A DNA stretch of 64,000 bases from Patescibacteria group bacterium (GCA_041659045.1 JBAZZB010000001.1:134111-198110); one strand, 5' to 3'. Counted from the stretch's first letter, positions 37,671-49,887 are shown. The notes: generated from the letters alone by a model not told the origin. Program-made: numbers and translations.

Positions 37671-37982
37671 ATGAAGCCCCTGCTCATTTCGCTCATCATC
37701 GCCCTCGGCCTCTTCGCCACCACCTCGACCGCTTCGGCCGACCGCACCTTCGAGGTGAAGGACGACGTGGTGAAGCTGGTCATCAAGAAGGCGAAGTTCG
37801 TCTTCGCCAAGCCCACCACCACCCTCATCAAGACCTGTGTCGACGACGCCCGCTACGAGTGCGTCTACAAGCTGGTCGGCAAGAACCGGCGCCAGAAGGA
37901 GATCAAGATCTACGAGTACCGCGCGGACGACTACGTCTTCCCGATCTACATCACCGAGCACAAGCTCGCCTCCACCAACTGA
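37671..37982 (+). CDS. Small secreted protein (island gene A)
   Basis: GGAGGA RBS; signal peptide MKPLLISLIIALGLFATTSTASA; 103 aa with 2 Cys; extreme GC3 codon bias. Confidence 0.6.
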   Translation: MKPLLISLIIALGLFATTSTASADRTFEVKDDVVKLVIKKAKFVFAKPTTTLIKTCVDDARYECVYKLVGKNRRQKEIKIYEYRADDYVFPIYITEHKLASTN

Positions 37983-38033
37983 TCGCGTCGCGATCACTCA
38001 GCTCAGCGCGTCGAGCCTCCGCTCGACGTCTCT

Positions 38034-38080
38034 GCCAAAGCTTCCGAGTCTCTCGGAATCTCCGGCAGGGAAACGTTCCC
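38034..38080 (+). repeat. Island repeat R1 (47 nt, two hairpins) upstream of gene B
   Basis: gccaaagcttCCGAGtctCTCGGaatctccggcaGGGAAacgTTCCC; the homolog is at 38499-38548. Confidence 0.5.
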
Positions 38081-38116
38081 AACGAGACACCACCACATAC
38101 CACAGCGAGGTTACCC

Positions 38117-38452
38117 GTGCCCGAGTTCAAGCTCTACATCATTGCCGACGCGTGCGCGCCCGCCGCCCTCATGTTCGGACCGTTCAACTCTCCCGAGGCG
38201 GCCGACGCCTGGCTCGAGGAGCTCAAGGGTCGGCTGCCCGCCAACGAGTGGCACCACAAGGTGCAGACGATCAAGGGGTCGTACCTCCCCAACGCGCTCG
38301 TCTACAGGCGCTTCCAGAACATCGCCACCAAGCAGTGGTTCACGGTCCACCTCGTCGAGGTCGACAAGGACGCCGCGGTGGCCAGCACGTTCGAAGCCGC
38401 GCAGGACCTCGCCACGGTGCTCTTGCACCTGAACCTCAAGTCCGCCACCTAG
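38117..38452 (+). CDS. Hypothetical cytoplasmic protein (island gene B)
   Basis: GTG start with GAGG upstream; 111 aa; GC3-rich. Confidence 0.5.
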   Translation: MPEFKLYIIADACAPAALMFGPFNSPEAADAWLEELKGRLPANEWHHKVQTIKGSYLPNALVYRRFQNIATKQWFTVHLVEVDKDAAVASTFEAAQDLATVLLHLNLKSAT

Positions 38453-38498
38453 TCTCACCCCTCAGTCTTCGCAGGACGCCCGCCCCCGTCCTGCTCCC

Positions 38499-38548
38499 GC
38501 CAAAGCTTCCGATAGAATCGGAATCTCCGGCGGGAAAATCTTCCCGCC
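38499..38548 (+). repeat. Island repeat R2 (50 nt, two hairpins) upstream of gene C
   Basis: gccaaagcttCCGATagaATCGGaatctccggcGGGAAaatcTTCCCgcc; hairpin 1 carries compensatory changes relative to R1 (CCGAG/CTCGG to CCGAT/ATCGG). Confidence 0.5.
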
Positions 38549-38600
38549 TGTTTCTGTTCATGGGCGATCGTGCCCAACAACCCCGGCCAAGGAGGCCACC

Positions 38601-39077
38601 ATGCACCGTCCCGATTTGATGCTGAGCCGCGAAGTGCTGCGCCCGCGACCTGCTCCGACGTTCCCGCGCCGCAAGCTCGGATTCATTCCGATCAGCTTGA
38701 TCGTTGCGGGTGTCGTCGCGATCACGGTCGCAGTCATGGGCATGATGCACGATCGTTCGATGCGCCAGCCTTCCGTGGCCGGTCTGTCGGTCCCGGCTCC
38801 GTCGGCGCCGTTCGCCTGCACGCTCGAGGATCGCGAGATCCAGAACCTCGTCTACGAGCTCTCCATGCACGGCTGGATCCAGCCGTTCGAAGTCGAGGGG
38901 GTCTCGTGCGATCCGTTCAGCCAGACCTCGCCGAAGGTGCGTTTCACCATCGTCGAGCGTCCGGTGGACGAGCTCTGGATCTACTACACGACCGAGCATC
39001 GCTATCCGTGCAAGCCGCCCAAGGAGTCGTGGCTGCGCGGAGATCCGAGCGCCTGGAAGTACTGCTACAAGCGGTGA
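38601..39077 (+). CDS. Membrane-anchored protein with Cys-containing extracytoplasmic domain (island gene C)
   Basis: AAGGAGG RBS; one TM (FIPISLIVAGVVAITVAVMGMM); 158 aa. Confidence 0.6.
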   Translation: MHRPDLMLSREVLRPRPAPTFPRRKLGFIPISLIVAGVVAITVAVMGMMHDRSMRQPSVAGLSVPAPSAPFACTLEDREIQNLVYELSMHGWIQPFEVEGVSCDPFSQTSPKVRFTIVERPVDELWIYYTTEHRYPCKPPKESWLRGDPSAWKYCYKR

Positions 39078-39079
39078 CC

Positions 39080-39190
39080 ATGTTCGAAGTTCTGTTCCTT
39101 CTCGCTCTGGTCGTCGCGCTCCTCACGGACGTGACGCCAGAAACCAAGATCGTCGCGCCCGCGCCGCCCGACGACCTCAACCTCAACTGA
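39080..39190 (+). CDS. Possible 36-aa TM peptide
   Basis: ATG overlaps the gene C stop (gTGAccATG); MFEVLFLLALVVALLTDVTPETKIVAPAPPDDLNLN. Confidence 0.3.
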   Translation: MFEVLFLLALVVALLTDVTPETKIVAPAPPDDLNLN

Positions 39191-39295
39191 CCGCACCTAT
39201 CCGGTCATAAAAATGATAGGGTTCTCTCTGAGCGTTCGAGTGATCGAACATTCGGATCGGAATTCCGTCCGCTCCAGACGTTTTTAGGAGGTCCC

Positions 39296-39526
39296 ATGCG
39301 CTTCTGGTCCGCCTTGTCTCTGTTCATCCTCAGTCTTGTTGCCATCGTCCACGGCTACCGCGTCCAGGAGGATGGGTACTTCGTGAGCGGCTTCATCGCT
39401 TTGTTGGTGAGTGTTCTCGCCATGGTCTATTACACCTGGGTGTACACCATCGAGACGCTCAGCGAGGAAGTCGCCAAGACCATCGCCAAGGAGAAAAGGA
39501 ACATCAGGAGCCATCATGGCCCCTGA
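39296..39526 (+). CDS. Small 2-TM membrane protein (island gene D)
   Basis: AGGAGG RBS; 76 aa. Confidence 0.55.
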   Translation: MRFWSALSLFILSLVAIVHGYRVQEDGYFVSGFIALLVSVLAMVYYTWVYTIETLSEEVAKTIAKEKRNIRSHHGP

Positions 39527-39681
39527 GCAAGATCAATCATGGTTCGTCGAGGACAACCATGCACAACCCGTCGGTTCTCACGGCGGGTTTTATCGTTCCC
39601 TAATATTCTTGACATGTGAGCTTTTCCTTGGTAGCCTCAACCTCGTCTTTGGACAGCCCGTTTTACGGGTAGGAGGACATC

Positions 39682-40830
39682 ATGCGTACCCAGCTCGCTC
39701 TGCTCGTTTCCTTGGTTTTCGTGGTCTGCACCGGCGCTTGCGCCGGTCGTCAGCGCCCCCAGTCGGGCCTGCGTTCCGAGCTGCATCAGCCGCTGGCCGC
39801 TCCCGACCCCAAGGTCCAGAGCGTCCCCATCGATACGGAGATCGTCGTGCCCGAAGCACCGCACGCCGCCGCCTCGGTCGCGGCAGTCGCCGTCCCCAAG
39901 AAGATCGTGCCGAAGCGCATCAAGCGCGTCCGTTCCGCTCAGGAACAGATCAACTTCGATGTGCGGCAGATCATCAACGCGAACAACGCCTGGCTCCGCG
40001 CCGTGGGCGAGCGAGTGTACGGGACGCGTGTCCCGCCATCGCTGCCCATGAACGACGAGCTCGTCGCTGCTCTGCGCATCGAACCCAACACCGTCGAACG
40101 TCCGCGACGGTACGTCGCGAAGGCACCGCGCGCTTCCGTGAAGCACGCCAAGCCCCCGATCCCGTCCGTGACGCACGTCGTCTACAGCGCCGCGCGAACG
40201 CGCTCGTTGACACCGCTACCACCAAAGGTGCAAGAACGCGCAAACGTTGCCGCTCTTGCCGCCCTGGAATCGCCTGATCCCACGACGCTCGGCGTCGTGA
40301 GTTCCGCCCCGCCCGCTACTACGGAAGCCACATCTTCCGTCGTGCACATGTCCAACATGTCCGCGCGACGTTCCGATGTCGCGCTCACCGATCCCAAATC
40401 CTCTTCGATCGACGTGGTCGATCGCCCGCACCTGTTCGAACCGAGCGCTTCCGTAAGCGCTTCCAGTCCGTTCTACCAGCTCTACCTCCCGGCGATCATC
40501 TTCGCGGTGATCCTCGGTCCGCTCCTTGGTTACATCCTTTCGCGCCGTCCAACGCGCGTTTCGTCGTTCGATGATGACGTCGTTCGCGACGCCACCAGCA
40601 CAGTCGTTACCGACCCTGCTCCGACCCACGTACTCGCCCTTGCGCACGTCGTACCTCACTCCGCCCCGACCCAGGAGGCCAGGCCTCCTCACCAGTTCCC
40701 GGAAGGTTCCGGACAGATCATCCGTTCGGAAGACCTCAACACCGGTCAGATCGCTGCCGGTGAGATCGAGGACAAGAACCTCGACGCGCCTACCCAGGCG
40801 CCACCCACGAACACCATCTACTTGAACTGA
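39682..40830 (+). CDS. Lipoprotein/secreted low-complexity protein with a C-proximal TM (island gene E)
   Basis: AGGAGG RBS; signal peptide with Cys; Pro/Ala/Ser-rich; TM FYQLYLPAIIFAVILGPLLGYIL near the C-terminus. Confidence 0.6.
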   Translation: MRTQLALLVSLVFVVCTGACAGRQRPQSGLRSELHQPLAAPDPKVQSVPIDTEIVVPEAPHAAASVAAVAVPKKIVPKRIKRVRSAQEQINFDVRQIINANNAWLRAVGERVYGTRVPPSLPMNDELVAALRIEPNTVERPRRYVAKAPRASVKHAKPPIPSVTHVVYSAARTRSLTPLPPKVQERANVAALAALESPDPTTLGVVSSAPPATTEATSSVVHMSNMSARRSDVALTDPKSSSIDVVDRPHLFEPSASVSASSPFYQLYLPAIIFAVILGPLLGYILSRRPTRVSSFDDDVVRDATSTVVTDPAPTHVLALAHVVPHSAPTQEARPPHQFPEGSGQIIRSEDLNTGQIAAGEIEDKNLDAPTQAPPTNTIYLN

Positions 40831-40981: not shown

Positions 40982-43024
40982 ATGAACTTCAAGCTCAAAG
41001 CACCCTATTCGCCAGCCGGAGATCAGCCGCAAGCTATTGAAAAGCTCGTGGCCGGTTTGAAGTCGGGCCAGGAGATGCAGACGCTTCTTGGTGTGACGGG
41101 TTCAGGAAAAACGTACACCGTCGCCAACGTTATTCAGGAAATGCAGAAGCCAACCTTGGTGATCGCGCATAACAAGACGTTGGCCGCGCAGTTGTGCAAC
41201 GAGTTCCGCGAGTTCTTCCCGGAGAACGCTGTTGAGTACTTCGTGTCGTATTACGACTACTACCAGCCGGAAGCTTACGTGCCGTCGAGCGACACCTATA
41301 TCGAGAAGGAATCGATGATCAACGAAGAGATCGATCGACTTCGACACGCTTCGACGCAGGCACTTCTGACGCGCAAGGACGTCATCATCGTTGCTTCGGT
41401 TTCCTGCATCTACGGCTTGGGTGCGCCGGAACAATATGAAAAAACCGTGCTTCATTTCAAAACAGGGGAGCGCATCACGCGCGAAGGCGTTTTGACGCGT
41501 TTTATCGAGATGCAGTTCGAGCGCACGACCGCCGATCTGACGCGTGGCCATTTCCGCGTGCGCGGTGAAACGGTCGAGGTCATGCCGGCGAACGAAGAGA
41601 TGATCTATCGCATCGAGACGGGCATGGGCGAGATCACGGGCATCTATAAAATCGATCCGCTGACGCGTAAGCGTGCCGAGCGTGTCGAAGATGTTTGGAT
41701 TTTCCCAGCCAAGCACTTCATTACGAATGCTGAAGATCGGACACGTGCCTTGGCACAGATGGAAATTGAAATGAAGGCACAGCTCGAGAAGTTCCGCAAA
41801 GAAGGAAAGCTGCTCGAAGCAGAGCGTCTTGAACGCCGTACGCGGTTCGATATGGCGATGATGCGCGAAGTCGGCTACTGCCACGGCATCGAGAACTATT
41901 CGCAGATTCTTTCCGGACGTCCGCCGGGTGCTCCGCCGGATACGCTCATGTCGTATTTCCCGAAAGATTTCTTGATGGTCATCGATGAATCGCATGTCAC
42001 GATTCCGCAGATCGGAGGCATGTCGGCGGGGGACGCGGCGCGCAAGAAGACGCTTATTGAATACGGTTTCCGTTTGCCGAGCGCTGCCGATAACCGCCCG
42101 CTTGCCTGGGCGGAATTTGAATCGCGCATGCCGCAAGCCTTGTTTGTTTCGGCGACGCCTGGGAAATACGAATACGCAAACAGTGACCAGATCGTCGAGC
42201 AAATCATTCGCCCGACGGGTCTTGTCGATCCTGAAGTCATTGTGAAACCGGTTACGGAAGACCTGAACACTGGTTACAAAGGCCAGGTTGAAGATTTGAT
42301 TGAGCGCATCAAGGGCCGTATTGAAAAAGACGAGCGCGTCATGGCGACGACGCTCACGAAAAAAATGGCCGAGGATCTTACGACGTATCTCGAGACGCTC
42401 AAGATCAAAGTGAAATACATTCATTCCGACGTCGAGACGCTTGATCGCATCCAGATTCTCCACGAGTTTCGTCGTGGCGTGTTCGACGTCTTAATCGGCG
42501 TGAACTTGCTGCGTGAAGGTCTCGACTTACCGGAAGTTTCGCTCGTCGCAATTCTCGATGCCGACAAGGAGGGTTTCCTCCGTTCTGAAACGTCGCTGAT
42601 TCAAACAATCGGCCGCGCCGCGCGTAACGTCGGTGGCCAAGTCGTGCTGTATGCCGACGGCGATACCGGTTCGCTCACGCGCGCGATCAGAGAAACCAAT
42701 CGCCGCCGTGAACGGCAGATGGCGTACAACAAGGAGCACAACATTACGCCGAAGACGGTGAAGAAAGCGATCACGTCGATGTTCACCGAGATTGAGAAGT
42801 CTCGCGAGAAGGCCGCTAAGCGTAACCTCGAACTGGAAGCCAAGGCTGAGAAACGCCCGCTCGAAGCCGTGTTGAAGGAAAAAGAACTGCAGATGCGTGA
42901 CGCCGCCAAATCGCTCGAGTTCGAACTCGCGGCGCTCCTGCGCGATGAAATTCGCGAGCTCAAGAAGAAGCAGGCCGAAGCGGAGGCGAAGCCGAAGACC
43001 GCCAAACCGCGCCGCGGGCGCTAA
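40982..43024 (+). CDS. uvrB: Excinuclease ABC subunit B UvrB
   Basis: GVTGSGKT Walker A, helicase motifs, and the C-terminal UvrB/UvrC interaction motif [15 protein letters not shown]. Confidence 0.95.
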
Positions 43025-43035
43025 CCCCACCGACT

Positions 43036-45624
43036 ATGCAAGAACACATCGTCATCAAAGGCGCGCGCGAGCACAACTTGAAAAACGTTGATCTCACGCT
43101 GCCGCGCAACAAAATGATCGTCCTGACGGGCGTCTCCGGTTCGGGGAAGTCGAGTTTGGCGTTCGATACGATCTTCGCTGAAGGCCAGCGCCGCTATGTT
43201 GAGTCGCTTTCGGCGTATGCGCGCCAATTTCTCGGACAGATGCAGAAACCGGACGTCGACGAAATCGAAGGTTTGTCGCCGGCGATCGCCATCGATCAGA
43301 AAGCCCACTCTTCGAACCCGCGCTCGACGGTTGCGACCATCACCGAAATTTACGACTATTTGCGCGTCCTGTACGCCCGCGTCGGGCGTCCGCATTGTGT
43401 TACCTGCAAAAAAGAAATCCGCAAGCTGACACCTGAAGAAATCGTGGACACGGCCGTTGAACGCACGAAGGCGATTCATTCCGAGCAGGTTGCCGAGAAC
43501 AAATCGATCAGCGGCAAAGAGTCGCTCTTGAAGAAAAAGAAAATTCATTACGATCACCTTAAAGTGCTGGCGCCGATCGTGCGCGGACGCAAGGGCGAGT
43601 ATCTGCAGCTGCTGAACGATCTTTATACCGCGGGTTTTGCCGAGGTGCGCGTCGACGGCAAGTGGAAGAATTTGCGTGAACGTATTTCGATGGCGCGTCA
43701 CGGTACGCACACGATCGAACTCCTCGTCGACCGCGTGCCGCTCGGTTGGCCGCTCGAAAACAATAAGGGCTTCCGCAGCCAGCTGGCGGAAGCCGTCGAA
43801 CAAGCGCTCGATCGCGCGAATGGTGTTGTGACGTTCGTGTATTCCGACGGTTCGGAGCACGTGATGTCATCGGAATACGCCTGCCCCGACGATGGTTTTT
43901 CGTTCCCGGAAGTTGAACCGCGTCTCTTCTCTTTCAACAGCCCATACGGCGCCTGCCCGACCTGCCATGGTCTCGGGACCGAATCCGTTTGGAGCGAAAA
44001 GGCTTGCCCAGAGTGTGACGGCGCGCGTCTTCGCAAAGAAGCGCTGCACGTTTGGCTCGGTGGTAAAAAGAGTATTCTTGACGTCACCTCGCTTTCGATT
44101 GACGAAGCGGCGGCGTTTTTCAACGGTCTCAAGCTTAACGACACGGAAAAAGAAATCTCGCTGTCCGTGCTGAAAGAAATCACCTCGCGCCTGCAATTCA
44201 TGCTGGACGTTGGCTTGAACTATCTGACGCTCTCGCGCAAAGCCGGTACGCTCTCGGGCGGTGAAGCGCAGCGCATTCGTTTGGCGTCACAGATCGGTTC
44301 AAAACTCGTCGGCGCTCTCTATGTGCTCGATGAACCGACGATCGGCTTGCACCAGCGCGATAACGCAAAGTTGCTCGAAACGCTGACGCACCTGCGCGAT
44401 CTCGGCAATACGATTATTGTCGTCGAACACGATGAGGACACGATTTTTACCGCCGATCATCTTGTCGACTTCGGTCCAGCCGCCGGCAAGCACGGTGGTC
44501 GCGTCGTGGCGCAAGGTTCGATGCCGGACGTTCTGATCAAAGGCCCGCACAATAAAGACTCGTTGACCGTCAAATATTTGAACGGCGACTTGAAGATCGC
44601 CGTACCGCGGAATCGCCGCACGAAGGACAAAGGCTCGATCCGCATCAAAGGCGCGTCCGAGAACAACTTGAAGAATATCGACGTCGAGATTCCGCTCGGC
44701 AAGTTCGTTTGTCTCACGGGTGTTTCCGGCTCCGGAAAATCGACGTTGATGGAAGATGTTCTTTGGAAGTCGCTCTCCAACAAGCTCAACGGTACGAGCT
44801 ATAAGCCGGGCAAGCACAAACAAATCCTCGGCCTCGAGCACCTCGATAAGGTTATCGTCATCGATCAATCGCCAATCGGCCGCACACCGCGTTCGAACCC
44901 CGCGACCTACACGGGGTCTTGGACGTACATCCGCGAGCTTTTTGCGTCGACCGCCGAGGCGCGCATGCGCGGCTACAAAATCGGACGCTTCTCGTTTAAC
45001 CGCCCAGGCGGACGCTGCGAGAACTGCGAAGGCAACGGCCAAATCGCGATTGAGATGCATTTCTTGCCGACGGTCTATGTTCAATGCGACGTCTGCAAAG
45101 GCCGCCGCTTCGACCGCGAAACGCTCGAAGTGAAGTACAAAGACAAGTCGATTTACGACATCTTGAAAATGACCGTCGAGGACTCGTGCGAATTCTTCCG
45201 CGACGTTCCGTGGATCTACGACAAATTGAAGTTGCTCAAAGAAGTCGGCTTGACGTATCTCGAACTCGGTCAGAGTGCGACGTCGCTCTCCGGTGGCGAA
45301 GCGCAGCGCGTGAAGCTTGCCTCCGAACTCTCCAAGCGCCAGACGGGACGCACGATCTATCTGCTCGATGAACCGACGACAGGTCTTCACTTTGCCGACA
45401 TCGATAAGCTGCTTGAAGTGTTGCATCGCCTCGTGAACTACGGCAACACGGTTTTGGTGATCGAACATAACCTCGACGTCATTAAGACGGCTGATCATGT
45501 GATCGACCTTGGACCCGAAGGAGGGGATCGTGGCGGTGAGGTTGTCGCGAGCGGCACTCCGGAGGAAGTCGTGCGCAGTGCGAAGTCGTTGACTGGAAAA
45601 TACTTGCGGAAGTACCTGAAATAA
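43036..45624 (+). CDS. uvrA: Excinuclease ABC subunit A UvrA
   Basis: Two ABC ATPase modules ([12 protein letters not shown]; [12 protein letters not shown]; second [10 protein letters not shown]; [12 protein letters not shown]) and zinc fingers CxxC. Confidence 0.95.
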
Positions 45625-45640
45625 AAATCCGCGACCGAAG

Positions 45641-46171
45641 TCACGGATGCGAAGCGAGATGTGGTGGGGTCACGAGCAGAGCTTGTTCGACCCGCGGGTC
45701 GGCGTGGAGGCTCACAATGGTGGCAAGCCGGATTGGAGCAAGGTTCAGCTCCTCCGCGGCTTGCAGGAACTCCGGTAGGAATGATCCGTCGCGGATCGTC
45801 TTTACGGAGAAGCGCGGGTGCGGGTGGCTAACGACGCGGCCATCGTGCACGACTTCGTAGGAGATCTCGACGAGCGCGTATGGCCATGTTCCGTAATAGC
45901 CGTCGTTCTGTCCGATCTCCTTGAGCATGGACGGCTTGTCGACTGGTCCACCCTGCGTACCATCGGAATAGTGGAGACGGGTGAAGATCGCCGCGTCCCT
46001 GCGACAGAGATCGTTGATCCAGATGCTGCGCAGGATGACCGGTCCGAGACTGACCGCGTGCTGGCAGTCAGGCGTGTGGCACCGCTCGTCATCGCGCATG
46101 TGGAAACGATCGCCGATGCTCTCCGGGATCGTGCGTGAAGGAAGCTTTGTCACGGGACACCTCTTGGTCAT
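45641..46171 (-). CDS. Hypothetical protein (176 aa) in a GC-rich cassette between uvrA and uvrC
   Basis: Long ORF with high GC3 and no family recognised. A TTGACA-N17-TAGAAC promoter-like element lies on the minus strand at ~46176-46205 upstream of M1. Confidence 0.5.
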   Translation of the reverse strand: MTKRCPVTKLPSRTIPESIGDRFHMRDDERCHTPDCQHAVSLGPVILRSIWINDLCRRDAAIFTRLHYSDGTQGGPVDKPSMLKEIGQNDGYYGTWPYALVEISYEVVHDGRVVSHPHPRFSVKTIRDGSFLPEFLQAAEELNLAPIRLATIVSLHADPRVEQALLVTPPHLASHP

Positions 46172-46211
46172 TCGTTGTCCGTGTTCTAGCAGATGGAGAC
46201 GTTCGTGTCAA

Positions 46212-46240
46212 TAAAAAAAAGCGCCGAACGAGGTCGGACG
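46212..46240 (-). terminator. Probable intrinsic terminator (minus strand) after gene 46241-46531
   Basis: Imperfect GC hairpin followed by T8 on the minus strand. Confidence 0.45.
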
Positions 46241-46531
46241 CTAGTTGGGCAGATGCATGTGCGTGACGATGCGCTCGACGATGAACTTCTGCGAGACGCG
46301 CAGACGCTTGGCCAAGTGCCGGAGGCTCTCGGGGCGCTTGCCGTCGATCAGTGCCTGCACGTCGTAGACGTAGTGCATCCAGTGAATGTGCTTGCGCGGC
46401 TTGTAGACCGCCACCTCCACGTAGAGGTGCTTGTCGCCGCCGTAGCCGTAGTCGAGGTTCACCATGCGACCCCTGGGTCGTCCGCAGTCGGCCCCGATGT
46501 CGACGGACTTGATCACGACGGGGTGCTTCAT
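46241..46531 (-). CDS. Small protein (96 aa) with putative C-terminal helix-turn-helix
   Basis: ATG at 46531 with AAGGA 5 nt upstream; the C-terminal ...ESLRHLAKRLRVSQKFIVERIV segment is HTH-like. Confidence 0.5.
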   Translation of the reverse strand: MKHPVVIKSVDIGADCGRPRGRMVNLDYGYGGDKHLYVEVAVYKPRKHIHWMHYVYDVQALIDGKRPESLRHLAKRLRVSQKFIVERIVTHMHLPN

Positions 46532-46672
46532 CGGTCCTTGGAGCCGCGTGTCCTGACAGGTGAAGTACTTCTCGTCAGCCTTTCCCGTTGCTTGTTCGAT
46601 CTGCACGTTGTTCCTCCGTCTTGGTGATGAGCTTGAATTTTCTACCACACAAAAGTCGTTTCGTCAAGACCG

Positions 46673-46681
46673 TGTTATCAT
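46673..46681 (+). promoter_or_regulatory. Extended -10 TGtTATCAT 6 nt upstream of the uvrC ATG (leaderless candidate)
   Basis: TGnTATCAT at 46673-46681 with the ATG at 46688 and no SD. Confidence 0.4.
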
Positions 46682-46687
46682 TTTTCC

Positions 46688-47962
46688 ATGCGCTTGCCAG
46701 ACACGCTCAAACTCAAAGAAACCGACATCCCTGAAACCCCCGGCGTCTATTACATGAAAGACGCTGCGGGCAAAATTTTGTATGTCGGTAAAGCGGTTTC
46801 CTTGGCGCGCCGCATTCCGCAATATTGGCAGCGTCCGCATGGTGAGCATATTGAGAAGATGGTGCCATCGATTGCGGAAATCGATTGGCAAGTCGTGCCG
46901 ACGGCCATCGAAGCTTTGATTCTCGAAGCGAACGAAATCCGAAAGCTCAAGCCGCCGTACAACGTCATTGGGAAAGATGATTCAAGTTTTTTGCACGTCG
47001 CAATCACGAACGAACCCTACCCGAAGCCGGTTTTGATTCGCGGCTACGAGCTGGAGGCCACGCCGAAAAAGAAATTCAAATACGTTTTCGGGCCCTACAC
47101 GTCATCGACGTCGATTCGCGCGGCGCTTGAACTCACCCGCAAGCTGTTTCATTGGTCTGATTGCCAACCGAATCAGAAGCGCCCGTGCTTCTACTATCAC
47201 ATTAAACTCTGCCCCGGCGTCTGCGTTGGAAAAATTTCGCGCCGTGACTACGCGAAAATCATTCGACGCTTGGTGCTGTTCTTTGATGGCAAAAAAACGC
47301 AGATTTTGAAGGAGACCGAACGGCAAATGAAATCTGCGGCTAAAGCGGAAAACTTTGAAGAAGCGGCCAGGCTTCGCAATCTTTCGTTCGCGCTGACGCA
47401 TATTCAAGATATTTCGGTGCTCAAGCGTGAAGAAGATCCACGCGAGGCTCGCGAACTTGGTATCAATATCTTCGGGCGCATCGAGGCCTACGACATCTCG
47501 AATATCATGGGGCAGCAAGCCGTCGCCTCGGGAGTCGTTTTTGTCGAAGGCTTGCCGCGCAAGAGTCTCTACAAGAAATTCAAAATCAAAACCGTCGAAG
47601 GTGCGAATGATATTGCGATGATGAAGGAGGTGTTGCGCCGCCGTTTCGCGCACGCTTCGCCGGGCGACAAGAACGAAGAGTGGAAGCTCCCGGATCTTCT
47701 TGTTATTGACGGTGGAAGGGGGCAGGTCAACGCCGCGATGGAAATTCTGATGCGGCTCGGCTTGAGGATTCCGACGATCGGCCTGGCGAAAGGCCCTGAT
47801 CGCAAACAAGACGTCGTCGTGTACGGCGAACGGACGCCGGAACTTGTTCGCGTCGTGACGCGGTACAAGAAGATCTTGCAGCACGCGCGCGACGAGGCGC
47901 ATCGGTTTGCCGTGAGTTATCACCGCAAGCGCCGGGCTGAAAAATTTCTCGGCCGGAGCTGA
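46688..47962 (+). CDS. uvrC: Excinuclease ABC subunit C UvrC, short form lacking the C-terminal (HhH)2 domain
   Basis: GIY-YIG (GVYYMKDAAGKILYVGKA), UvrB-binding motif (...FEEAARLRNLSFAL) and an RNase H-like endonuclease domain. 424 aa, versus ~600 for canonical UvrC. Confidence 0.85.
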   Translation: MRLPDTLKLKETDIPETPGVYYMKDAAGKILYVGKAVSLARRIPQYWQRPHGEHIEKMVPSIAEIDWQVVPTAIEALILEANEIRKLKPPYNVIGKDDSSFLHVAITNEPYPKPVLIRGYELEATPKKKFKYVFGPYTSSTSIRAALELTRKLFHWSDCQPNQKRPCFYYHIKLCPGVCVGKISRRDYAKIIRRLVLFFDGKKTQILKETERQMKSAAKAENFEEAARLRNLSFALTHIQDISVLKREEDPREARELGINIFGRIEAYDISNIMGQQAVASGVVFVEGLPRKSLYKKFKIKTVEGANDIAMMKEVLRRRFAHASPGDKNEEWKLPDLLVIDGGRGQVNAAMEILMRLGLRIPTIGLAKGPDRKQDVVVYGERTPELVRVVTRYKKILQHARDEAHRFAVSYHRKRRAEKFLGRS

Positions 47963-47996
47963 CGCGCTTCTGCCGATATAAAGAGTTGTTAACATT

Positions 47997-48034
47997 TTAA
48001 AAAAAAGAGACTCCGACATGAGTGTGGGAGTCTA
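47997..48034 (-). terminator. Intrinsic terminator (minus strand) after the ScyD-like gene; convergent with uvrC
   Basis: AGACTCC-loop-GGAGTCT hairpin followed by T8 on the minus strand. Confidence 0.7.
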
Positions 48035-48072
48035 AAGGAAAAACGTGTGGGCCTAGCAGGGCCGGAAGCGAC

Positions 48073-49224
48073 TTACTGGCCGCAGGTGGTGTGCGGACCA
48101 GGAACGTCGATCCGAACGATCTCGCCCAGGCCGCTTTGCGTTCCGACGCCGTAGCCACGGTTCGAGACGAAGAGGTCGCCTTCCGGGCCGAAAGCCATGC
48201 CGGTGGGCAGCGTCAGTCCTTGCGCGACGACCTGCAATCCTTCGTCGGTCCACCGCAGCACACGACCGCTGGCCGTCGTCAAGAACGGCGGGTACGGCGT
48301 GTTGCCTGTCGAGGACTCGAGTAAGTACAGCTTCCCGGCGCAGTCGAAGGCAAGATCCATGACGGTCGTGAGTCCTGTCATGAGGTGCGTCACCTGGCCG
48401 GCGGGCGTGACCTTGAACAGGTGCGCCTGACCGTCAGGATACGGCAGCTCGCCGAACGTGCCGACGTAGAAGTTCCCATCCTTGCCGTGAGCGAGCGACG
48501 TATAGGTGAGCTGACCGATGAGCGAGAGGTCTGCCACGCGCGTGACCGTGCCATCGAGCTCCGCCTTGAGCAGCTGCGCGTGGTTTCCTTCCAGCACGTA
48601 GAAGCTGTTGCCGACGACGACCGTATCGGTCGGAACGCCGTCCGGGGCCGTATCGTCGTCTGCTGGCCCCGCGGTCGGGTTGGCGAGGATCCAGGCGCCG
48701 AGGTCGACGACCAGGGTGCGCGCGCCGCCGGCGTCCATCCGGTAGATGCCCTTCGGCTGGTCGGCCGGATTTCCGGTCGAGCAGCCGCCGCCTTGGACGA
48801 CGACGTACGGCACTCCGCCCATGAAGACGATCTCCTCGGGCCCGACCACCTCCGAACCGGTCCATGGCGTGGTCTGCCCCGAAGGAAGGCCGTCGCTGAA
48901 CGTGCTGCGCACGCCGTCGACGCCGATCTTCGACACGCGGCCCGTGGGGCCACCCGTGATCGGCCCGAGAGGCTCGGGAGCCTGCTCGCAGAGGCCGACC
49001 GTGGAGTTGGAGCCGCCGCGTCCCGCCTCGGCGACGAAGAGTATGTCTCCGTCGAATGCGAGGCCGCGTGGGTTGTCCAGGTTGGTCGTGAAGACCGTGA
49101 CGGGCGCCGTTAGCGCAGGATCCGTCGTCGATGTGTCGGTGTCGTCCGAGCCAAGCGCGACGCAAGCGCCGAGCATTAGCATGCCGACAAGGGTGAGTCG
49201 CCGTTTCATTCCTAATATTTCCAT
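48073..49224 (-). CDS. ScyD/ScyE family beta-propeller lipoprotein
   Basis: ATG at 49224 with AGGAGG 7 nt upstream; lipobox LGAC; repeated ...GLAFDGDILFVAEAG... and ...GMAFGPEGDLFVSN... blades; GC3-rich. Confidence 0.65.
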   Translation of the reverse strand: MEILGMKRRLTLVGMLMLGACVALGSDDTDTSTTDPALTAPVTVFTTNLDNPRGLAFDGDILFVAEAGRGGSNSTVGLCEQAPEPLGPITGGPTGRVSKIGVDGVRSTFSDGLPSGQTTPWTGSEVVGPEEIVFMGGVPYVVVQGGGCSTGNPADQPKGIYRMDAGGARTLVVDLGAWILANPTAGPADDDTAPDGVPTDTVVVGNSFYVLEGNHAQLLKAELDGTVTRVADLSLIGQLTYTSLAHGKDGNFYVGTFGELPYPDGQAHLFKVTPAGQVTHLMTGLTTVMDLAFDCAGKLYLLESSTGNTPYPPFLTTASGRVLRWTDEGLQVVAQGLTLPTGMAFGPEGDLFVSNRGYGVGTQSGLGEIVRIDVPGPHTTCGQ

Positions 49225-49370
49225 CCGAATCCTCCTGAGCTTTATGCGGTACACACGCGTTCAACGCGAACGCGTCAGCACCGCCAGGAGGTTTTACGCT
49301 CTCCTGCAAAAAGTGTCAAGCCCCGCAGGACACTCAGATTTTTCCGGCTGTTTTTTATCCCCAATTTCCG

Positions 49371-49437
49371 GTGGGGAACAGGGTTGTCTTGTGGTAAAAA
49401 GTGGGGTATAATACCTGCATCGTGGTGGGAAGTGGGG
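49371..49437 (+). promoter_or_regulatory. Pmra promoter region with GTGGG(G) direct repeats (MraZ boxes)
   Basis: TTGTCT (49384-49389), 17 nt, TATAAT (49407-49412). GTGGGG repeats at 49371, 49401 and 49432 (about 30-nt phasing), plus GTGGTGGG at 49422. Confidence 0.55.
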
Positions 49438-49455
49438 AAAACACAAAAAAACGTT

Positions 49456-49887
49456 ATGTTTATTGGCGAGTATCGACATTCGATCGACGACAAAGGACGC
49501 CTGGCGATTCCGGTGAAATTTCGCGGGGATCTTGAGTCTGGCGCGATCGTCACGCGCGGCCTCGACGGCTGTCTGTATGTCTATACGCCTGCCGAGTGGC
49601 AGAAGTTGGCCGACAAACTCGCCGCCATGCCGATGAGTCAATCCAATTCTCGCGCCTTCGCCCGCTTGATGCTGGCCGGTGCCATGGATTGCGCCATCGA
49701 CAAGCAGGGGAGGATCGTCCTGCCCGATTACCTTCGTTCGTACGCCGGTCTCAAAAAGAACACGGTCGTGGCCGGTTTGTATAACCACTTGGAGCTCTGG
49801 GACGAAAAAGCTTGGAACACCTACAAGCAGAAAACCGAGAAGGACTCCGGCGAGATTGCGGAGCAGCTCGGTTCACTCGGCGTGTAG
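49456..49887 (+). CDS. mraZ: Transcriptional regulator MraZ
   Basis: MFIGEYRHSIDDKGRLAIPVKFR...GRIVLPDYLRSYAG: tandem SpoVT/AbrB-like MraZ domains. Confidence 0.9.
   Translation: MFIGEYRHSIDDKGRLAIPVKFRGDLESGAIVTRGLDGCLYVYTPAEWQKLADKLAAMPMSQSNSRAFARLMLAGAMDCAIDKQGRIVLPDYLRSYAGLKKNTVVAGLYNHLELWDEKAWNTYKQKTEKDSGEIAEQLGSLGV

Follow-up and report, generated by a model that had tools for sequence, protein, structure and literature searches.

A probable tandem array of orphan paralogs between uvrA and uvrC in Patescibacteria with apparently minimal repair proteins

What are two small minus-strand genes doing between uvrA and uvrC of a patescibacterial chromosome, and what do they mean for the excision-repair genes that they separate? 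The question arises in a stretch of 64,000 nucleotides (nt) from a Patescibacteria metagenome-assembled genome (MAG; GCA_041659045.1, JBAZZB010000001.1:134111-198110), the whole of which is here called the window; the nearest named relatives of the source lineage are Candidatus Paceibacter and Minisyncoccota MAGs. In the open reading frame (ORF) listing and family scans, uvrB, uvrA and uvrC span less than 7 kb, all on the plus strand, and two minus-strand ORFs (45641-46171 and 46241-46648) separate the second from the third. The locus is, on balance, probably best described as a dynamic, clade-restricted tandem array of paralogs in the uvrA-uvrC slot, where array denotes one to three genes of a single family, orfS its small (S-type) and orfL its large (L-type) member. 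The array is an optional add-on and cannot be recognised as a toxin-antitoxin (TA), defence or repair component. The more notable result lies beside this orphan cassette: UvrA and UvrC of this lineage appear, from their domain content, to be naturally minimal repair proteins, of which a preliminary description of the sequence had seen only part. The genes concerned are the following.

40982-43024, plus strand: uvrB, 680 amino acids (aa), with Pfam UvrB_inter, Helicase_C, UvrB, ResIII and UVR, the full domain set
43036-45624, plus strand: uvrA, 862 aa, class-I-like, without the insertion domain
45641-46153, minus strand: orfL, L-type paralog, 170 aa, homologs P0001-4 and P0011-18
46241-46606, minus strand: orfS, S-type paralog, 121 aa, GC content at third codon positions (GC3) 0.88, homologs P0005-10
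46688-47962, plus strand: uvrC, 424 aa, with GIY-YIG, a Cys-rich/UVR region and the catalytic RNase H domain

A variable slot in a conserved gene cluster

All three uvr genes lie inside 7 kb, as first described, and score above curated cut-offs; both intervening minus-strand ORFs are present and have conserved homologs. The clustering itself had been called unusual, but comparison of relatives finds a uvrB/uvrA/uvrC cluster to be normal for this lineage. It differs from the arrangement of E. coli K-12, where uvrC stands alone between pgsA and uvrY, and from canonical clusters in being interrupted by the paralog array. The uvrA-uvrC junction was compared in a sample of 15 related species whose UvrC proteins are 81-92% identical, drawn from a UvrC-based scan of GTDB species genomes and from homolog-bearing contigs. 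The backbone uvrB-uvrA-slot-uvrC-slot-mraZ-rsmH is common to all sampled species, and UvrB identity is 82-94% across 12 related species; the content of the uvrA-uvrC slot is variable.

S and L: window, L011, L013, L015
3-type (third paralog) and L: L021
3, S and L: L009, L010
S only: L018, L020
short L-type only: L019
unrelated ORFs: L022
empty: L012, L014, L016, L017

The family is absent at the junction in 5 of the 15 species, two more have only the small gene and one only a short large-type gene. Array size ranges from one to three genes, and order and copy number vary between species; the third paralog is a gene of 130-140 aa that adjoins uvrC in L009 and L010, and the small gene of L021 is of the same subtype. 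On one short contig the gene after L is S-like (hhalign 97.6% with the S profile), and on another an L-type gene is directly divergent from uvrC. Every recovered context of the family is between uvrA and uvrC, or beside uvrC on short contigs, so that in all cases examined the family appears limited to a single narrow clade within the Paceibacteria (Patescibacteria), where it takes up only the uvrA-uvrC slot. The stop codon of uvrA runs into the start codon of uvrC in L012 and L014 (ATGA within GGATGA), and there uvrB, uvrA and uvrC are read as one translationally coupled operon; by the same reading the array splits an operon that is otherwise contiguous. The preliminary description had taken the pair to be accessory, which agrees with its absence from these five relatives, with its evolution faster than that of the neighbouring genes and with the atypical codon composition of orfS; the cassette is not carried by all relatives, and no housekeeping function was found for either protein.

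Three further observations concern the sampled records. The uvrA-uvrC spacer of about 100 nt in array-free L016 (L016:8899-9000) is a long nested palindrome (CCCGTCATTCCGAGCGCGCG...CGCGCGGCTCGGGATGAC), possibly a repeat element or the scar left by a deletion. In L009, a gene resembling low-molecular-weight phosphotyrosine phosphatases (LMWPc-like, L009:9717-10118, E 2e-6) lies between uvrB and uvrA. The records L012-L014, L016-L018 and L021, from relatives with UvrC 84-88% identical to that of the window, are titled 'uncultured Gammaproteobacteria bacterium', almost certainly a MAG mislabel.

The paralogs and their expression signals

The two proteins differ in length from the 96 and 176 aa first assigned to them. 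For orfS, the gene callers give 121 aa (P0005) from a GTG at 46606 that stands 6 nt past a GGAGG, and the conserved N-terminal motif F-x3-D-x-RL of the family lies upstream of the 96-aa ATG. The orfL ORF is open to the ATG at 46171 (176 aa), but its most likely start, judged from the AAGAGG-N6-GTG at that point and from a start region conserved in 7 species, is the GTG at 46153, giving 170 aa. An island-like GC3 had been attributed to both genes; it holds for orfS (0.88, z = +3.3 against 41 window genes with mean 0.659 and standard deviation 0.066), whereas orfL, at 0.74 (z = +1.2), is no outlier. High GC3 is a feature of orfS in 8 of 9 related species as well (0.80-0.95), and of the third paralog, while orfL follows the backbone. 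Because of this recurrence the bias is taken as a lasting property of the gene and not as the footprint of a recent import, and recent horizontal transfer was rejected as its cause. Also rejected as a real gene was a 144-aa plus-strand ORF antisense to orfS (46193-46627): its GC content by codon position (0.82/0.37/0.61) is as expected opposite a high-GC3 gene, and it is the minus-strand frame that carries the conserved motifs, Shine-Dalgarno sequence, in-frame indels and paralogy.

Neither orfS nor orfL has a match in the Pfam, NCBIfam, PHROGs or PADLOC libraries; PADLOC-DB v2 yielded a single weak hit, CARF2--CARF, to the small protein (E 0.04) and none to the large. Among 5.8 billion (5.8e9) clusters, orfL recovered 4 and then 8 homologs and orfS 6; an exhaustive search of 1.84e9 representatives with the orfL profile returned 9 proteins. 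One orfL match, at 99% identity, is from Patescibacteria group bacterium WC866_01025. No relatives were found in metagenome contigs of the Joint Genome Institute (two scans), in IMG/VR (one scan) or in phage or plasmid records (tblastn), and profile searches of PDB sequences with both proteins returned nothing below E 0.5. The cassette is described as an orphan family of a sort common in Patescibacteria.

The two orphans resemble each other. Hidden Markov models of S and L give weak reciprocal matches in two collinear segments, and hhalign joins the families with a probability of 75% (E 2.5e-5) from alignments of 7 sequences and of 93.3% (E 2.7e-7, 98 columns) from alignments of 13. Corresponding motifs in S and L are HPVVIKSVD and GPVILRSIW, DYGYGGD and HYSDG, YVEV and LVEI, FDV and RFxV, and, near the C-terminus, LAxxLxVSxxxLxxxIxxHA and AAxELxLxxxRLxxIVxxHAD. 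The AlphaFold2 model of orfS (pLDDT 77, pTM 0.73) has four beta strands followed by three helices, that of orfL scores similarly (pLDDT 74, pTM 0.73), and the predicted order of strands and helices corresponds between them. On this basis orfL would be the S core with an N-terminal loop rich in Cys and His and an internal insertion of about 25 aa in which WPY occurs, and the two genes are read as distant, diverged tandem paralogs of one orphan family.

Promoter and terminator elements were read directly from the sequence, a generic promoter/terminator scan having reported neither the L promoter nor the S terminator.

45627-45648, minus strand: terminator-like hairpin and T-run of orfL, a 9-pair stem with 5 G-C pairs (terminator scan), convergent with uvrA
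46183-46211, minus strand: orfL promoter, -35 TTGACA (46211-46206), 17-nt spacer, extended -10 TGCTAGAAC (hexamer 46188-46183)
46213-46241, minus strand: orfS intrinsic terminator, hairpin GCG(U)CCGA-CCUCGU-UCGGCGC followed by U8
46639-46667, minus strand: orfS promoter, -35 TTGACG (46667-46662), 17-nt spacer, -10 TAGAAA (46644-46639)
46673-46688, plus strand: uvrC promoter core, extended -10 TGtTATCAT (46673-46681), 6 nt ahead of the ATG at 46688

The promoter of the form TTGACA-N17-TAGAAC and the terminator that were first placed between the two genes are both seen again in the comparison of 7 species, and no other DNA of the region is as well conserved. ATTGAC and TGnTA..AC of the orfL promoter are invariant there, and the hairpin, T-run, -35, extended -10 and Shine-Dalgarno elements are near-invariant, while the S and L proteins themselves are only 32-76% identical. 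The orfS terminator hairpin (RNA fold -12.3 kcal/mol) is paired in 95% of cells across species, with two compensatory pairs, both in the most divergent species; it occurs once in the window, and the idea that its palindrome is a repeated binding site was accordingly rejected. The conserved terminator and the separate promoters would split orfS and orfL into two transcription units. The two genes share the sigma-70-like promoter form TTGAC-N17-TAGAA and the word ATSACCAAGA in the 5' untranslated region (UTR), which suggests duplication of whole transcription units.

The orfS promoter faces that of uvrC. GTCAA and TTTCTA of the former are conserved in array-bearing species whichever paralog adjoins uvrC, and so is a TGnTAnnAT located 6-7 nt ahead of the uvrC ATG. 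With the extended -10 only 6 nt from the ATG in the window and no Shine-Dalgarno sequence before it, the uvrC mRNA is predicted to be leaderless where the array is present; apparently leaderless uvrC starts also stand at the corresponding sites in L011, L013, L015, L018, L019, L021, L009, L010 and L035. The uvrC extended -10 overlaps the -35 side of the orfS promoter, back to back, from which it is predicted that the two are not occupied independently and that the uvrC and array promoters compete or interlock. The arrangement is like that of divergent small helix-turn-helix (HTH) autoregulators with back-to-back promoters, in that a region of 81 bp holds two overlapping divergent promoters, one for a small putative HTH protein and the other for uvrC. 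It differs from them in that no operator repeat was found here, the HTH of S is putative only, and uvrC works without the S/L gene in sister species.

Minimal UvrA and UvrC and their neighbourhood

The UvrA of the window scores 1310.8 bits against NF001503 (cut-off 1147), with ABC_tran matches in three stretches. It has two ATP-binding cassette (ABC) ATPase modules, the zinc modules are present, and the UvrB-binding domain is kept (UvrA_inter PF17760, residues 174-268). When it is aligned with the solved UvrA 9gxk_A, residues 175-315 correspond to 170-304 of the chain and 317-861 to 421-960; chain residues 305-420 are left unmatched, and these make up the insertion domain of about 115 aa, which contacts DNA and is placed between the CxxC pairs of zinc module 2. 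A recent structural study gives this domain an essential role in DNA coordination (PMC11985968). The protein also carries an additional segment of about 26 aa at residues 143-174, directly ahead of the UvrB-binding domain.

Loss of one of the two domains inserted in the first nucleotide-binding domain (NBD-I) is also seen in class II UvrA proteins, such as Deinococcus radiodurans UvrA2, DrrC and Ecm16. Class II UvrA proteins are without the UvrB-binding domain, whereas the window protein keeps that domain (PF17760), is without the insertion domain instead, and is encoded together with uvrB and uvrC; the class II structures 2vf7 and 7sh1 match it in the C-terminal half only.

UvrC is shortened at two places. 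It scores 367.7 bits against TIGR00194 (cut-off 285.45), and the parts named in the preliminary description are all found: GIY-YIG (PF01541, residues 19-92, with 1yd6 and 1ycz aligning to residues 6-101), the UvrB-binding UVR motif (PF02151, residues 205-231) and the catalytic RNase H endonuclease domain (PF08459, residues 261-409, E 1.2e-44), which aligns to 3c65, 2nrt and 8b0q. In the BLASTP alignment with E. coli UvrC the segments YDISN, IDGG and EAHRF are matched and the Asp-Asp-His residues are present. The C-terminal tandem helix-hairpin-helix domain, (HhH)2, is missing, as first described: no HhH match was found with Pfam, the E. coli HhH being at 557-608, and the protein terminates 6 residues past the position aligned to E. 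coli 551, i.e. where (HhH)2 would start. To this is added the loss of the central RNase H-like domain. The two aligned segments (14-231 with 14-231 and 264-418 with 394-551 of E. coli) are separated by about 30 residues in the window protein against 162 in E. coli, and Pfam gives no PF22920 match here, while E. coli UvrC matches at 251-368.

In D. radiodurans UvrC (DrUvrC) the corresponding parts are an inactive 'RNase H1' platform at 243-366 and (HhH)2 at 550-608 (PMC10085695). A DrUvrC construct without (HhH)2 binds DNA almost normally (Kd 40 vs 28 nM) and keeps 3' incision, with 5' incision partly impaired in vitro, and a C-terminal UvrC fragment can restore that incision in trans (PMC10085695). 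The window protein is like this engineered construct in missing (HhH)2; its truncation is natural and clade-fixed, and also removes the central domain. Cho is a shortened UvrC relative that likewise occurs in nature, but unlike Cho the window UvrC retains the 5' nuclease domain; the NCBIfam Cho model matches residues 3-192 (E 2e-11), far under its cut-off.

Set beside the canonical UvrABC of E. coli, Bacillus and D. radiodurans, the window system shares a complete UvrB, a UvrA with ABC, zinc and UvrB-binding modules, and a UvrC with the GIY-YIG 3' nuclease, four-Cys region, UVR motif and catalytic RNase H domain; it differs in a UvrA without the insertion domain and a UvrC without PF22920 and (HhH)2. 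Among distant Patescibacteria, a Moraniibacteriota MAG (L023:3339-4688, 449 aa) and a Paceibacterota one (L024:8917-10197, 426 aa) have a UvrC of this same minimal form. The Moraniibacteriota UvrA retains a segment of about 120 aa at the insertion-domain position, and loss of the UvrA insertion domain is therefore narrower than the minimal UvrC. In this MAG uvrC stands between two uvrA paralogs (uvrA-uvrC-uvrA', L023:331-7750), both with the segment of about 120 aa. No published description of these UvrA and UvrC architectures was found in the literature searched.

In the surroundings of the cluster, the uvrC-mraZ junction (47963-49455) is variable too and makes a second such slot, whose length in relatives spans 128 bp to 2.4 kb; in the window it holds a ScyD/ScyE-family gene (48073-49254, minus strand; NF033206, E 6e-53; GC 0.66, GC3 0.82), the highest-GC stretch of the neighbourhood. 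The mraZ ORF (49384-49887) is open from 49384 (167 aa), but its start is probably 49456, because all relatives align over 143 aa. Upstream of uvrB, the block 37800-40830 is rich in GC (0.62-0.67) and its ORFs match no family; one of them, of 382 aa (39682-40830), has an identity of only 26-46% in relatives that keep UvrB at 82-94%. Lineage-specific genes that evolve fast are here GC-richer than the core genes, the reverse of the usual pattern. An Rfam scan of the window found only three tRNAs, with no match in the uvr region.

How the array evolved and what it may do

A neighbour-joining tree was built from UvrA (440-854) and UvrC (1-407), 822 aa in total. The family occurs in both major clades, and the group to which L019 belongs has 100% bootstrap; L012 and L014, both empty, form a pair that branches from within array-bearing species, and S-only L018 is sister to S+L L015 with a bootstrap of 100. 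The simplest reading of this tree is that the array was probably ancestral to the clade and has been lost repeatedly. The preliminary description had the pair acquired, and a recent acquisition does not fit: the same junction is occupied in both major clades, the GC3 excess is found in 8 of 9 species, and there are no mobility genes, neither an integrase or transposase ORF nor flanking repeats being found at the junction in the ORF listing and repeat check. No tRNA lies within 29 kb of the junction.

Selection on the array was compared with that on its neighbours through Nei-Gojobori estimates of nonsynonymous (dN) and synonymous (dS) divergence.

uvr genes and mraZ: dN/dS 0.02-0.05
rsmH: dN/dS 0.04-0.11
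orfL: dN/dS 0.15-0.42
orfS: dN/dS 0.47-0.99, with dS 0.25-0.63 vs 0.7-1.8 in uvrA and uvrC

Such low synonymous divergence fits the extreme GC3 of orfS and inflates the ratio for this gene. With dN at 0.17-0.74 against 0.03-0.09 in the uvr genes, the array proteins outpace the repair proteins on either side by a factor of 5-10, and yet they keep invariant motifs, intact frames and highly conserved expression signals. From the invariant motifs, the orfL ratio, the conserved signals and the compensatory hairpin changes, the array genes appear to be functional and under selection.

The history that would best accommodate these observations begins with a single family, duplicated together with its promoter and 5' UTR to give S- and L-type transcription units. 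The array would be ancestral and then lost several times; where it is present, uvrC would be driven by its own extended -10 promoter, back to back with the adjacent array promoter and not fully independent of it. The array genes would be expressed and selected despite fast protein change, and their products may serve as local regulators or nucleoid-type factors, with no enzymatic part in repair. Of the effects predicted for them, the most concrete is one on the expression of uvrC by way of the interlocked promoters. A more specific proposal, that S and L are small proteins that bind nucleic acid, built of an alpha/beta core and an HTH-like pair of C-terminal helices, and have a DNA-binding or regulatory role, is put forward tentatively, as a possibility suggested by sequence and model that is more doubtful than the array description itself. 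The C-terminal HTH first assigned to the small protein is a plausible reading only: AlphaFold2 predicts helices at 93-102 and 106-115 in the C-terminal region of S, and a relaxed per-member Pfam scan matched HTH_10 in 1 of 7 homologs (E 0.047). A PD-(D/E)xK nuclease, considered for the invariant Asp/Glu residues, was rejected by reading, as the spacing is wrong and the Lys is missing; the top Foldseek matches (Pur-alpha/PC4-like for S, influenza PA and LigT for L), with template modelling scores of 0.12-0.39, were treated as noise.

Several points weigh against this account. Some nodes of the tree have a bootstrap of 42-68%. The distances between cassette proteins conflict with the backbone tree: the window and L011 have the closest S and L proteins (69% and 76%) and belong to different backbone groups, and the S proteins of L015 and L018 are only 46% identical. 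Vertical descent with loss is therefore incomplete as an explanation, and allele exchange via the conserved flanks, or strong rate variation, is also needed. The orfS dN/dS of 0.47-0.99 could mean weak constraint. The start-site basis of the leaderless uvrC mRNA and the competition between promoters are predictions only, and no convincing operator-like inverted repeat was found in the 81-bp S-uvrC intergenic region. On the protein side, the DNA-binding idea draws on a sequence pattern, the two predicted helices and the one HTH_10 match, and a basic isoelectric point, which would favour it, is found in only about two thirds of S proteins. The folds are predicted, from alignments of 6-8 sequences, and Foldseek gave no significant neighbour for both models against PDB or for S against BFVD (best E 0.07-0.26).

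Some of the same features recall conflict systems, and the pair could be a horizontally acquired TA, anti-phage defence or other conflict module in which the small HTH protein neutralises or regulates a larger effector. In favour of this are the presence/absence polymorphism among close relatives, the rapid protein evolution (orfS dN/dS up to about 1), the incongruence of the cassette with the backbone, the variable copy number and order, and the atypical GC3 of orfS; the solitary S genes of L018 and L020 would then be comparable to orphan antitoxins. Type II TA systems with an HTH antitoxin are alike in having two small adjacent same-strand genes, the first with a possible C-terminal HTH, as well as in patchy distribution and fast evolution. 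They differ in that here the partners appear to be paralogs, not a toxin with an unrelated antidote, and that a conserved terminator and a second promoter would divide them, so that no single operon would be formed. No Pfam, PADLOC or PHROG family, whether of toxin, antitoxin or defence protein, is matched; the family is fixed in a single chromosomal slot, with none on the phage and plasmid records searched and no mobility genes or repeats at the junction, and the GC3 excess is persistent across species with no mark of recent import. For these reasons the TA, defence or regulator-effector pair originally proposed is considered unlikely.

A further suggestion is that S and L represent a new class of small DNA-binding proteins with a functional link to excision repair in bacteria whose UvrABC is naturally minimal; it is given only a slight chance, slighter than that of a conflict module. 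In one variant of this suggestion S/L would regulate locally in response to damage, its promoter in physical competition with that of the leaderless uvrC; in another it would make up in trans for contacts to DNA junctions that went with the UvrA insertion domain and UvrC (HhH)2. Diversification and recombination in the array would on this view mirror adaptation to differing regimes of DNA damage.

It is still less probable that the family consists of excision-repair accessory factors, supplying the lost DNA contacts in trans, for example by binding single-/double-stranded junctions for 5' incision. The family is always associated with uvrA and uvrC in carrier species, the UvrA and UvrC here are without domains that contribute to DNA binding (PMC10085695; PMC11985968), the 5' incision rescue in trans by a C-terminal fragment in D. 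radiodurans sets a precedent (PMC10085695), and the weak top Foldseek matches of S are single-stranded-DNA-binding folds (Pur-alpha, YdbC/PC4-like; E >= 0.26). These structural matches are not significant, however, and the species with an empty slot (L012, L014, L016, L017) or with unrelated ORFs in it (L022) have no array and the same truncated proteins, an 862-aa UvrA and a UvrC of 424-429 aa. The array is therefore not needed for repair, unless copies exist elsewhere in those genomes. The distant L023 and L024 also have the minimal UvrC without the family, S and L are on the opposite strand in separate transcription units, and their rate of evolution is 5-10 times that of their would-be partner proteins.

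The least probable alternative, that the genes are weakly constrained or decaying lineage-specific ORFans filling a permissive intergenic slot, can appeal to the orfS dN/dS of 0.47-0.99, repeated loss and the lack of a known domain, but is opposed by reading frames intact in every carrier species, motifs kept invariant at dS of about 1, the orfL ratio of 0.15-0.42, near-invariant promoters, Shine-Dalgarno sequences and terminator with compensatory hairpin changes, and folds predicted with confidence for such shallow alignments.

The tandem array of paralogs, as described here, has consequences for both the genome and the repair pathway. One slot between conserved core genes holds a fast-diversifying array, showing accessory-gene life in the ultra-small genomes of Patescibacteria; the regulatory DNA of the array is more conserved than its proteins, and presence of the array would re-wire the expression of neighbouring uvrC. 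If S and L neither bind DNA nor affect uvrC, this would be one more orphan family and a mostly ordinary finding; if they do either, they would add a new lineage-specific layer to a pathway thought invariant in bacteria. The uvr proteins themselves, being small, strongly conserved (dN/dS 0.02-0.05) and co-encoded, are usable to test which domains are needed for damage recognition and dual incision.

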